Shown: positions 5,362-33,863, numbered from the stretch's first letter. The stretch is DNA of 64,000 nt from a virus (IMGVR_UViG_3300007513_000009); one strand, 5' to 3'. Notes: generated by a model from the letters alone, not told the origin. Numbers and translations: made by a program.

Positions 5362-6561
5362 TTGATGGCGTTCAACGATTTTTTTGACGATCCCGATGAG
5401 TTTAATTACGATCGGGAGCGGGATAACTTTATCGATAATATGAATATGTTGAAGGCTATGTCGGTTGAAGAGATTACTTTATATAAAAAGTGGCAAGAGT
5501 TGAACAAAGATGCCTATAAAATGGTAAAGAAGGCAAATAAGTTTTTCAATGTTGGTTATATGTTATGGAGTCCTACAGATATAAACAATAAACAACAGAC
5601 TATTAAAGAGATAGAAGAGTTAGACCCTTATGTGGAATATATTGAGCAGGGAAATGTTAAGTCCACAGATACTTGGGTTTCAGTAAGGAAGTTGATTCAT
5701 AGTATGGAGTTTACTGCTAATCCAGGTAGGAATTTAAAATTCTTTATTAAAGATAGGAATACAGATAAAGTCTTAGGTGTTGTTTGTTTAGGGTCTGATG
5801 TTGTGTCAATTGGTGTTAGAGATAAACATATTGGTTGGACAAAAGAAGATAAGTTGACTGATGGTAAATTGAGGCACACTTCTATTGCTACCACTATATG
5901 TTGTACTCAACCATTAGGTTTTAATTTTTTGGGTGGTAAGTTGGTTGCTGCTATGACAACTAGTTCGGTTATAAGGAATAAATGGGAAGAACTTTATGAT
6001 GAAACTTTAGTAGGCATAACCACTACTGCTCTCTATGGTGTTCATTCAATGTACAATGGCATTCCACATTGGAAAACTCTTGGGGAATCTGTAGGTAGAA
6101 TTTCTTTGAAGCCGGATGATTCAACTTATGAAGTGTGGCATGATTGGTTGAAAGAGAATAAGAGAGATGAGTATTTAGAAAAAACTGTACAAAAAGAGGG
6201 AGTTGCTGGTCCAAGGACTGGGGTGAAGAGTATCATTATTCATATGATGTTTAAGGAATTGGGTATAAGAGCTTCAAATTATGAGCATGGTTTTAAAAGA
6301 GGTGTTTATTATTCAGATATATATGAAAATGGTAAAGAGTTTTTACAGAATGAGATACATGAAGATGAACTTATTATGAAGAAGAAGTTTACTGGTGATG
6401 TTGATTATATAAATAATTGGTGGAAACCTAAGGCTATCAGAAGGTATACTAAGTTATTTGATGAGGGTAGATTAAAACCTGATAGATTATTTTATGCTGA
6501 TGTTGTTGGTAAGACATGGGAACAAACAAAGGCAAAGTATTTAAATGAGGTGGGTAGATAG
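5362..6561 (+). CDS. DUF4338 / DruA-like protein
   Basis: NPGRNLKFFIKD…LGSDV…RDKHIGW…QPLGFNFLGGKLVA…TTTALYG…YNG. Confidence 0.7.
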   Translation: MMAFNDFFDDPDEFNYDRERDNFIDNMNMLKAMSVEEITLYKKWQELNKDAYKMVKKANKFFNVGYMLWSPTDINNKQQTIKEIEELDPYVEYIEQGNVKSTDTWVSVRKLIHSMEFTANPGRNLKFFIKDRNTDKVLGVVCLGSDVVSIGVRDKHIGWTKEDKLTDGKLRHTSIATTICCTQPLGFNFLGGKLVAAMTTSSVIRNKWEELYDETLVGITTTALYGVHSMYNGIPHWKTLGESVGRISLKPDDSTYEVWHDWLKENKRDEYLEKTVQKEGVAGPRTGVKSIIIHMMFKELGIRASNYEHGFKRGVYYSDIYENGKEFLQNEIHEDELIMKKKFTGDVDYINNWWKPKAIRRYTKLFDEGRLKPDRLFYADVVGKTWEQTKAKYLNEVGR

Positions 6562-14015: not shown

Positions 14016-14471
14016 ATGAAAAATACAGTTATATTCGATTTGGATGGTACACTTGCCATCATAGATAAAAGACGTGAGTTGTCTCGTAAATTTAATGGTA
14101 AGATTGATTTTAAGATATTACACGATCCGTCTAACATACATTTGGATGAACCAAATGAGCCTGTGATTAAAATGGCACAGATGTTTGCGGAAGATGGTTT
14201 TAATATCTTTATATTTTCAGGTCGTTCAGATAAAACTATGTTTACTACTAAGTCTTGGTTAACTCATAATAAAGTACCATTTCATAAGTTGGTGATGAGA
14301 CCACATAAAACAATGAACTTTATTCCTGATGAAATATTGAAAAGAGATATGTTGGATACTCATGCAGATATTGATGATGTATTTTTAGTGGTAGATGATA
14401 GACAGAAAGTGGTTGATATGTGGAGAAATCTGGGACTTACGGTATTTCAGGTAGCTCCGGGAGACTTTTAA
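14016..14471 (+). CDS. HAD phosphatase resembling the polynucleotide kinase (PseT) 3'-phosphatase domain
   Basis: IFDLDGTLA, FSGR, DDRQKVVDMWRNLGLTVFQVAPGDF. Confidence 0.9.
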   Translation: MKNTVIFDLDGTLAIIDKRRELSRKFNGKIDFKILHDPSNIHLDEPNEPVIKMAQMFAEDGFNIFIFSGRSDKTMFTTKSWLTHNKVPFHKLVMRPHKTMNFIPDEILKRDMLDTHADIDDVFLVVDDRQKVVDMWRNLGLTVFQVAPGDF

Positions 14472-14475
14472 ATAT

Positions 14476-14546
14476 GCGGGTGTTGTATAATGGTATTACC
14501 CCAGCCTTCCAAGCTGGTGATGTCGGTCCGATTCCGACCATCCGCT
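14476..14546 (+). tRNA. tRNA-Gly(TCC), near-canonical
   Basis: Acceptor GCGGGTG/CATCCGC, anticodon arm CCAGC-CTTCCAA-GCTGG, T-arm GTCGG-TCCGATT-CCGAC, U73; no encoded CCA. Confidence 0.93.
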
Positions 14547-14574
14547 CAAAAATATATTTGTATTTAGGATTTTT

Positions 14575-30572: not shown

Positions 30573-31034
30573 ATGCCAAGGATAAGAAAAACTCTTGGGA
30601 AAAAAACACGCAAATTTGATTATCACGAAAATGATTATCGCTATCCACCTAAACCAGATTCCTATTATGATGTAAAGGAAAGAGGTGTATGTAGGTGGTG
30701 TGGTGATGTTATTAATGATGAATATGGTAGAAGAAACAATAGAGCTAGTTGGCATCCTGATTGTAGTGAAAGATATCTTTTTATCTATAATCAAAAGCAT
30801 ATAAAGAAATACATAAAGAAGAGAGATTATTGTGAATGTGCTAATTGTGGTGAGTATGATTCAAAATGGCAATTAGATCACATCAAACCATTATATGAAC
30901 AAAAAGATTTATCAACCAATCAAATAGATTGGAGTTATTGGGAAGAAGGTAATCTACAGACTTTATGTAGAAAATGTCATAAAGAAAAAACTAAAAAAGA
31001 TATGAAACATAAAACAGGAGATAATAATGAATAA
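30573..31034 (+). CDS. HNH endonuclease
   Basis: RDYCECANCG…QLDHIKPL…NLQTLCRKCHKEKT. Confidence 0.9.
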   Translation: MPRIRKTLGKKTRKFDYHENDYRYPPKPDSYYDVKERGVCRWCGDVINDEYGRRNNRASWHPDCSERYLFIYNQKHIKKYIKKRDYCECANCGEYDSKWQLDHIKPLYEQKDLSTNQIDWSYWEEGNLQTLCRKCHKEKTKKDMKHKTGDNNE

Positions 31035-32233: not shown

Positions 32234-32263
32234 TTGACTTGTATAGGTAAAAATACTTATATT
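32234..32263 (+). promoter_or_regulatory. sigma70-like promoter driving the ncRNA-tRNA-mom unit
   Basis: TTGACT-N18-TATATT. Confidence 0.75.
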
Positions 32264-32274
32264 ATGATATAAGA

Positions 32275-32910
32275 TTTGGGTTGATTAGGGTATACCTATC
32301 CATACCACTGCTAGTATCGGTACTGCTGATACTTCTGGCATCAACCCATAGATTTTTGACAATTTGGAAATAGGAAGCGCGAAGGCTTGCTACCTTCGTG
32401 TGGGATTGACAGAATAAACTCTTTTCTAGAGAAGGGAGTTATTGTTTAGTAAGTTCGTCTGTGGTAGACTCTATTGCTCGAATGTGAGTGAAAAGAATCA
32501 ATAACAATTGTGAACCGAAAGATTTGTCTTTAAAGAAAAGAAACTACTTTTCTGGCTCATTGTAAGAGCGTGGTGTAAAAGCTGAGATTCTTACTTTATT
32601 ACCTAATAATCCGTGAGTGATGGATAAGGTGAATTGACAGGAGTTGTGTCCACTTCAACGAAGTTAACCACTTTTAGAAGTAACCAATCATAACCGATTG
32701 GGTTGATTGCATGAGTATTAAAATCATTCAAGATCAAAGGCATTTGTGAGATGTCAGGCTCACATCCCTCCTTAATTTCCAAGTATGAAGATTTCATTAA
32801 CAAACTTCGGTCAGCCGTATTAGGGTTGAAATCTTCATAAAGTTTGGGTGGTTTAACCGATTTTTAGTCTCCACTATTTTATGACTTAAAAAACAACCAA
32901 ATCACCCAGA
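32275..32910 (+). ncRNA. large structured non-coding RNA(s), family unidentified
   Basis: No + strand ORF of 60 aa or more; four consecutive stem-closed domains and about ten internal hairpins; G-U pairs favour the + strand. Confidence 0.7.
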
Positions 32911-32915
32911 TATTT

Positions 32916-32987
32916 GCGGTGGAAGTATCAAAGGTGATACACTTCGTTTCCAACGAAGAAGGTGGGGTTCGATTCCCTAACACCGCT
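32916..32987 (+). tRNA. atypical tRNA-Gly(TCC)
   Basis: GCGGTG/CACCGC acceptor, CTTCG-TTTCCAA-CGAAG anticodon arm, TGGGG-TTCGATT-CCCTA T-arm, U73; G7·A66 mismatch, A8, C14. Confidence 0.85.
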
Positions 32988-33018
32988 CAAAATTTGAACG
33001 ATAACCAAATGGTATGGT

Positions 33019-33801
33019 ATGGAAGAAAAATATGTAGATAAATCAAAAGTATATTTGCAACAAATACCCAAGAAGCAAGCTAAGAATATAATTATTGAAA
33101 AACATTATTCTCATAAATCTTCTTCATGTAGATATGCATTAGGAATCTTTTATAAAGATGATTCTCCACATCCATTTTTTGAAAATGAATCTAAAGAAAC
33201 ATTGATAGGTTGTATGACTCTAGGTTTTCCAGTTGGTAGAAGAGTGCTAGGTTCTATCTTTAGTGAAGACATAGGATTAGAGACAACAAATCTATTAGAG
33301 TTAACAAGACTTTATATTGATGATGGTTATGGTAAAAATATAGAATCATTTGTATTGGGTGCTATGTTTAGTTGGTTGAGGTTAAATGCACCAAACATTA
33401 AAGTATTAATATCATATGCAGATCCTGAACAAAATCATACAGGTAAAATTTATCAAGCAACTAATTGGTTATATCAAGGGTGTGGTGAAATACAGATGGC
33501 GCCAACATTCAGTTTGAGATTAACAGAAGATGGGGAATGGATACATAGCAGAACCGTTTATTCTTTATATGGTTCAGCCGCACCCAAAAATTTAATTAAG
33601 AAAATTGGTAAAACATTTTGGTTGAAGAAGGAAGCAGAGAAACATAGGTATCTTTACTTCATCGGAAACAAAAAAGAAAATAGACTATATAAATCAACAC
33701 TAAAACATAAACTATATCCCTATCCTGCCGACACTATAAACACCGCAGAAATTCAAAAAATAGAAGTTGAAGAATCAAGAGAAGTGGATAAATTTATTTA
33801 A
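33019..33801 (+). CDS. Mom-family (GNAT-fold) DNA adenine modification enzyme
   Basis: IIEKHYSH…LIGCMTLG…LELTRLYI…KNIESFV…LISYADPEQNHTGKIYQATNWLYQG…KHRYLY. Confidence 0.82.
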   Translation: MEEKYVDKSKVYLQQIPKKQAKNIIIEKHYSHKSSSCRYALGIFYKDDSPHPFFENESKETLIGCMTLGFPVGRRVLGSIFSEDIGLETTNLLELTRLYIDDGYGKNIESFVLGAMFSWLRLNAPNIKVLISYADPEQNHTGKIYQATNWLYQGCGEIQMAPTFSLRLTEDGEWIHSRTVYSLYGSAAPKNLIKKIGKTFWLKKEAEKHRYLYFIGNKKENRLYKSTLKHKLYPYPADTINTAEIQKIEVEESREVDKFI

Positions 33802-33863
33802 AAAAGTCTTGACTTGTATTGTTTTTTTATGTATATTCACATATGGAAAAAAGGAATAAAACA

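Follow-up and report, generated by a model that had tools for sequence, protein, structure and literature searches.

The window analyzed here, a stretch of 64,000 nucleotides from a marine phage, carries a gene for tRNA-Gly(UCC) (32916-32988, +) that is followed after 30 nt by a gene for a DNA-modifying enzyme of the Mom family (33019-33801, +), and both members of this tRNA-mom pair look functional. The initial annotation had noticed the pair and had proposed that the phage supplies its own non-proteinogenic tRNA, which would channel glycine into DNA modification; as a glycyl donor the tRNA is plausible, and the strictly non-proteinogenic part of the proposal was not supported. Our preferred reading, tentative and at less than an even chance, is of a phage that adds to the Gly-tRNAGly pool of its Mom-fold enzymes by means of a distinct and conserved tRNA lineage, which probably still decodes. 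An ordinary decoding tRNA explains the arrangement nearly as well, being nearly as likely, and two further explanations, a strictly non-proteinogenic donor and a counter-defence tRNA, are less likely.

The tRNA-mom unit

Two tRNA genes were called by ARAGORN in the window, both tRNA-Gly(UCC) (14476-14547 and 32916-32988), and they are the only tRNAs in the whole virus record, which comprises 131,241 bp and is about 70% complete. The tRNA at 32916 scored 42.1 bits, above the Rfam tRNA gathering score of 29. It has U73 and no encoded CCA, and the GlyRS identity set listed in the literature (G1-C72, C2-G71, G3-C70, U73, C35, and C36; PMC7826273) can be read in it completely; on paper, the host GlyRS should be able to charge it. 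The U8-A14(-A21) tertiary core is absent, with A8, C14, and G21 in its place; C14 pairs with G21 as a fifth pair of the D stem (GUAUC/GAUAC), and a G7.A66 mismatch is present. These deviations, like the identity elements, are as the initial annotation had described them. The remaining architecture is standard, including G18G19, a 7-nt anticodon loop with U33 and A37, and the T-loop UUCGAUU, and the T stem has U49-A65, G50.U64, and G51-C63.

The second copy (14476-14547, +), identified by ARAGORN and Rfam with 59.8 bits against the same gathering score of 29, is of the T4-type phage tRNA-Gly(UCC) (lineage B). It had been called a near-canonical tRNA with the same anticodon, which is correct for the anticodon and not quite so for the rest; U8, A14, and A21 are in place, but C55 replaces the universal U55 and U13.U22 is mismatched. 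Both this type and the mom-adjacent tRNA are UCC isoacceptors encoded by T4-like myophages with AT-rich genomes, whereas in the mom-adjacent tRNA A8 and the 14-21 pair replace the U8-A14-A21 core, so that it forms a separate lineage (lineage A). The two lineages occur together, one copy each, in the genome of the window and in a second genome (G011). In the close relative G001, lineage B is absent from the syntenic site, where homology stops exactly at the tRNA boundary, and the mom-adjacent lineage A is the sole tRNA in 130 kb. A gene for a HAD-type phosphatase (14016-14471; protein start M.K.TVIFDLDGTLA) directly precedes the tRNA at 14476, and such a gene also lies near the lineage-A tRNAs of relatives (L100, L102, L105, and L099).

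The open reading frame at 33019-33801 (260 codons) matches the Pfam family Mom (PF25680) with an E-value of 5.7e-44 and 150.6 bits against a cut-off of 27.1, in an alignment that covers profile positions 2-200 of 202, and it also matches phrog_1384, 'Mom-like DNA modification protein'. Furthermore, a profile built from this protein and 13 homologues matches the Mom protein of phage Mu (8BV8; E 4e-27), to which the window protein is homologous over its whole length. R97 (ELTR) and S110 (NIES) align to Mu R111 and S124, which are essential (PMC13219725), and are invariant in 14 homologues; the Mu residue numbers in the 8BV8 alignment carry an offset of +9, which was deduced from the S124A substitution present in that structure. 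The helix-turn-helix-like insertion required for activity (Mu ~175-209) is retained, as the alignment with 8BV8 runs undeleted to the C-terminus. The profile searches and the intact catalytic Arg and Ser thus bear out that the protein is Mom, as had been claimed, and together ARAGORN, Rfam, and Pfam agree that a tRNA-Gly(UCC) stands directly upstream of it. By this homology, the enzyme is a predicted Gly-tRNAGly-dependent GNAT that modifies adenine N6 in DNA.

In this context, Mu Mom has been reported to modify adenine N6 of dsDNA with glycine that it takes from Gly-tRNAGly (Silva et al., Nat Commun 2026; PMC13219725), which agrees with the donor that the initial annotation had named. The Mu enzyme accepts all three Escherichia coli tRNAGly isoacceptors and not Gly-tRNAAla (PMC13219725); since the latter is rejected, Mu Mom reads features of tRNAGly near the acceptor end. 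In that work the host pool was treated as Mom's source of glycine, and phage tRNA genes were unmentioned (PMC13219725). Our full-text search returned no literature linking a phage tRNA-Gly to mom. Mu lacks a tRNA gene, its Mom being able to work with every host tRNAGly isoacceptor, whereas the phage of the window has a tRNA-Gly 30 nt upstream of its mom. Moreover, mom of Mu is controlled by Com and C, whereas a leader resembling manA RNA precedes the unit described here, and the group of the window, again unlike Mu, has two to three Mom paralogues per phage. These paralogues fall into three classes (I, ~257 aa; II, ~254 aa; III, ~208 aa) with 27-44% identity between classes, suggesting different sequence contexts or different donors. 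The genome record of the window encodes two Mom paralogues, one of class I (33019-33801) and one of class III that lies outside the window (G000:C1:91651-92256), as well as one protein of the DruA/DUF4338 family, and relatives encode up to three Moms.

Between the tRNA and mom, the 30-nt spacer (32989-33018, +) contains no promoter-like or terminator-like site by consensus scan, in agreement with the earlier reading of this interval. A promoter-like site (TTGACT-18-TATATT; 32234-32263, +) would start a transcript of leader, tRNA, and mom, and the next promoter-like site (33809-33837, +), which consists of the same two hexamers, delimits the unit on its downstream side; such sites (TTGACT-N17/18-TATATT) are consensus matches and no evidence of function by themselves. 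The ORF-free stretch before the tRNA is 650 nt long and includes two tandem domains that resemble manA RNA (32380-32769, +; Rfam RF01745), a riboswitch candidate of marine T4-like phages (PMC2864571). The domains scored 26.4 bits (E 9e-5; 32380-32563) and 40.2 bits (E 7e-9; 32583-32769), below the gathering score of 55.2, and consequently the leader resembles manA RNA and is not fileable as a member of that family. Its middle aligns poorly with that of the closest relative (G001). An HNH endonuclease gene is found near the unit (30573-31034). Searched at the nucleotide level against GenBank phages, the region gave one match only (216 nt, 68% identity, to an uncultured phage) and no close relative.

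Conservation and placement of the tRNA lineage

The closest relatives of the unit (L001 and L002, the latter from G001) encode a Mom that is 96% identical, and the same tRNA occupies the corresponding position in both. Identity to G001 is 89% over the tRNA-mom block, against 77-79% for flanks and surrounding genes, and the upstream flank is strongly diverged between the window and these two loci. Within the tRNA three nucleotides differ, namely one D-loop base and both members of a T-stem pair (G52-C62 to A52-U62), the latter being a compensatory change. By pattern search, tRNAs of this type were recovered from 17 viral contigs, to which a survey of DruA-family genes added more, and these sequences constitute lineage A. 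All members have A8. C14-G21 and G7.A66 characterize sublineage A1, to which the tRNA at 32916 belongs, U14-A21 and G7-C66 characterize sublineage A2, and one diverged member has A14.

In an alignment of 12 sequences, 96.6% of the cells in stems are paired and 16 of the 22 pairs have changed on both sides; the 14-21 pair is U-A in eight sequences and C-G in two, and is unpaired only in the T4-type lineage B. Features that are odd, recurrent, and covarying in this way are heritable and structured, and do not denote decay. Random degeneration across relatives, which the initial annotation had named as a finding that would speak against its proposal, was not seen, with compensatory changes found instead. 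Judged from these substitution patterns, the tRNA at 32916 is under purifying selection. Of the deviations expected to recur, A8 and the extra D-stem pair do so, the pair covarying as C14-G21 or U14-A21, and G7.A66 is confined to sublineage A1. Furthermore, when 76 distinct tRNAs were compared, U8/A14 was present in 57 and A8 in 14, of which 13 were glycine tRNAs, namely those of lineage A and the copy of the Leptolyngbya phage Lbo-JY46. Anticodon-loop positions 32, 34, and 38 vary within lineage A, and C35 and C36 are fixed. Three lineage-A contigs (L126, from G064; L127, from G058; and L153, from another contig) have the anticodon ACC instead of UCC, which is very unusual for a bacterial tRNA-Gly.

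The initial annotation had expected a conserved linkage between tRNA-Gly and mom, which was not borne out across homologues. Among 64 viral loci with Mom homologues, tRNA-Gly was present at mom only in L001 and L002. No tRNA-Gly was found within 3 kb of the 62 other Mom loci (28-67% identity) by ARAGORN, by covariance model R1, or by a Gly-identity descriptor that allowed 55-95 nt in order to catch hidden or shrunken tRNA-Gly genes, and none was found near the Mom-like gene of two cultured phages, Staphylococcus phiSA_BS1 and Polaribacter P12002L. One candidate, at 2805-2953 of L033, was rejected as tRNA-Gly, being a tRNA-Leu-like element with a 68-nt insert that occurs in one contig only. Situated 45 nt before a Mom gene, the element comprises a 7-bp acceptor stem, a D arm, and a perfect T arm, is unmatched in Rfam, and is called tRNA-Leu(UAA) by ARAGORN only if the 68-nt insert is allowed.

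Elsewhere, the lineage stands apart from mom. In three genomes (G051, G052, and G063) a tRNA identical to that of G001 lies ~830 nt upstream of a gp32-like gene, and the orthologous class I Mom (64% identical) lies 13.7 kb from it, in another syntenic slot; homology of this context with the window ends 6-8 nt outside the tRNA. In three loci with this gp32 arrangement (L095, L096, and L109), a copy of the leader (~340 nt, 61% identical) is found between the identical tRNA and gp32, which indicates that the manA-like sequence moves together with the tRNA. Lineage A lies 75-80 kb from the orthologous mom in G005 and G011. Given the synteny with these two genomes, the expected position of mom is off the contig in several large fragments that carry the tRNA and lack mom; such fragments are therefore uninformative, and we rejected them as counter-evidence to co-occurrence.

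Overall, lineage A is placed independently in three settings, ahead of a DruA-like gene, of class I mom, and of gp32. In two of these it directly precedes a gene with a Mom fold, and such genes make up ~2% of genes, a coincidence that we consider suggestive, though post hoc.

Possible roles as glycyl donor or decoding tRNA

According to the preferred donor reading, a transcript initiated at the promoter-like site ~650 nt upstream would run through the manA-like leader and the tRNA at 32916 into mom. The host GlyRS would charge the tRNA and thereby enlarge the Gly-tRNAGly pool, on which the Mom-fold enzymes would draw in order to glycylate adenine N6 in phage DNA, and the modified DNA would be protected against restriction. 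This sequence of events is favored by the catalytic Arg and Ser of the enzyme, the acceptor-end features of the tRNA, the elevated identity of the tRNA-mom block, the compensatory pairs, the placement before DruA-like genes, the ACC variants, the two to three Mom paralogues of these phages, the retention of both lineages in G011 and of lineage A alone in G001, and the fact that the only two tRNAs of the record are both Gly(UCC). Against it stand the 62 unlinked Mom loci and the two cultured phages, the gp32 context, the distance of 75-80 kb in G005 and G011, the sufficiency of host isoacceptors for Mu Mom, the possibly single origin of the DruA-adjacent arrangement, the failure of profile comparison to connect DruA-like proteins with Mom, the tRNAs of Lbo-JY46, and the demand for decoding.

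Alternatively, the tRNA may be an ordinary auxiliary decoder of GGA and GGG in an AT-rich phage, like the tRNA-Gly of T4, and may owe its position at mom to chance shuffling of accessory genes within a variable region, a possibility that we regard as doubtful, and only slightly more so than the donor reading. Its cloverleaf is intact for this role, and across lineage A the decoding elements are conserved, including the 7-nt anticodon loop, U33, A37, G18G19, and the T-loop (UUCGA in the tRNA at 32916). GGA and GGG account for 31% and 12% of glycine codons, respectively, and at 43% together they represent a demand for decoding. The tRNA at 32916 is probably still usable for these codons. Moreover, A8 is also found in an ordinary tRNA complement, as Lbo-JY46 carries an A8/U14 tRNA-Gly and an A8 tRNA-Asp in an array of at least 12 tRNAs, and its complete genome has neither a Mom nor a DruA match; most Mom genes, in turn, have no tRNA nearby. 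The three contexts of the lineage, one of them next to gp32, the abrupt end of homology a few nucleotides from the tRNA, as expected of a small movable unit, and the nearby HNH endonuclease gene also fit shuffling. However, a purely decoding role leaves unexplained why diverged genomes retain a pair of isodecoders that share their anticodon, why two of three placements precede rare Mom-fold genes, why ACC variants exist, and why G001 keeps only the lineage-A copy.

The tRNA could instead serve Mom exclusively, with A8, C14, and G7.A66 barring it from EF-Tu and the ribosome in the manner of the staphylococcal tRNAs used by FemABX enzymes, which seems to us very unlikely. A precedent for a split Gly-tRNAGly pool does exist, in that tRNA-Gly species NP1-NP3 of Staphylococcus aureus are non-proteogenic donors for FmhB, FemA, and FemB (PMC7826273). 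As extra UCC isodecoders that keep GlyRS identity, occur alongside a proteogenic copy, and deviate in the D region, they resemble the tRNA at 32916, and both are associated with a GNAT-fold, aminoacyl-tRNA-dependent transferase (predicted in the phage). The proximity of G7.A66 to the T stem and the redundancy with the tRNA at 14476 are likewise consistent with exclusion from translation. Furthermore, a tRNA-Gly-like gene at 1321-1393 of L172 and L173, which was not called by ARAGORN, has an anticodon loop of only 6 nt and U.U mismatches at 50-64 and 51-63; it forms a tandem with a lineage-A tRNA-Gly immediately before a DruA-like gene and indicates that non-decoding variants exist in that neighborhood. 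The ACC anticodons of three contigs point in the same direction. Nevertheless, the staphylococcal NP tRNAs bind EF-Tu weakly in experiments and have altered D and T loops, whereas the tRNA at 32916 keeps G18G19 and its T-loop. The T-stem pairs that set EF-Tu affinity (49-65, 50-64, and 51-63; PMC7826273) vary freely across lineage A and are not consistently weak, with G51-C63 in this copy, and G7.A66 is replaced by G7-C66 in sublineage A2. Together with the conserved decoding elements and the A8 tRNAs of an ordinary phage array, these observations leave an EF-Tu-avoiding tRNA, as originally proposed, unsupported.

The least probable explanation is a counter-defence tRNA that replaces host tRNA-Gly inactivated or cleaved by host toxins, such as GNAT toxins acetylating Gly-tRNAGly or anticodon nucleases, its odd core making it a poor toxin substrate, for although phage tRNAs do replace targeted host tRNAs, type II GNAT toxins act on charged tRNA (general knowledge and PMC13219725, Fig. 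5), anticodon-loop positions vary within the lineage, and a HAD-type phosphatase gene adjoins the tRNAs in several genomes, the position before Mom-fold genes is left unexplained.

That the glycine of Mom comes from charged tRNA was shown only in 2023-2026, and published work assumes that the host pool is scavenged; according to that work on Mom, a drained host Gly-tRNA pool could hurt translation. If the donor reading is true, the arrangement would be the viral parallel to the way staphylococci divide tRNA-Gly into proteogenic and cell-wall species, and phage tRNA genes would have a role beyond codon supply.

DruA/DUF4338 proteins and the same tRNA lineage

The window itself encodes a protein of the DruA/DUF4338 family (5362-6561, +), which matches PF14236 with 75.4 bits against a cut-off of 27 and for which a structure model and fold searches predict a Mom-like GNAT core; no tRNA is found upstream of it here. 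It is a 67%-identical orthologue of a conserved 397-aa protein whose gene is preceded, at ~55 nt, by all A2 tRNAs. In a survey of 80 viral loci of the family (43-100% identity), a tRNA was directly upstream in 12, at a distance of 25-55 nt, and the DruA proteins of these 12 loci are 57-100% identical. The proximal tRNA is always a tRNA-Gly (UCC or ACC) with A8, and Ala or Cys tRNAs, if any, lie further upstream; because a small cluster of Ala, Cys, and Gly tRNAs is located there, the arrangement may represent a single inherited synteny. More distant DruA-like loci (40-48% identity) have no tRNA upstream.

Among solved structures, the predicted core of the DruA-like protein is most similar to Mu Mom, as indicated by the model and a fold search. 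A relation at the level of sequence was sought and rejected, with an hhalign probability below 2% and an empty profile search against PDB sequences, so that fold comparison is the only link between the two families. A look-up in the Protein Atlas gave a weak GNAT-phage-like lead (score 0.83). The family abounds in large marine phages, with at least 590 viral loci and 3098 proteins at E <1e-5, and its genes occur together with Mom genes in several contigs.

DruA is a protein of type I Druantia defence systems, and the phage proteins of 397-399 aa match PF14236 above the cut-off. They differ from this system in that the other Druantia genes are absent, the predicted core is Mom-like, and a tRNA-Gly directly precedes 12 loci. 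The literature searched reported no function for DruA. In its broadest form, the donor reading would hold that large marine T4-like phages have a private lineage of glycyl-donor tRNAs with A8 and a lengthened D stem, which would serve the Moms of classes I-III as well as DruA/DUF4338 proteins from a donor-enzyme unit headed by a riboswitch-like leader of the manA type, and that DruA is an aminoacyl-tRNA-dependent modifier of nucleic acids, which we consider unlikely as a whole. The structural resemblance modeled for DruA/DUF4338 and Mom, and the occurrence of one tRNA lineage ahead of both, offer a testable idea for the function of a Druantia defence protein.

Two minor observations concern the surroundings of these loci. 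In L120 (from G061), ARAGORN identified a tmRNA-like gene at 218-620, with a tag peptide ending in YAYA, ~900 nt upstream of a lineage-A tRNA. In L145, a GC-rich, ORF-free stretch of 1.3 kb (760-2109) ahead of a distant DruA-like gene includes a perfect hairpin resembling a T arm (957-973), along with further tRNA-like fragments.
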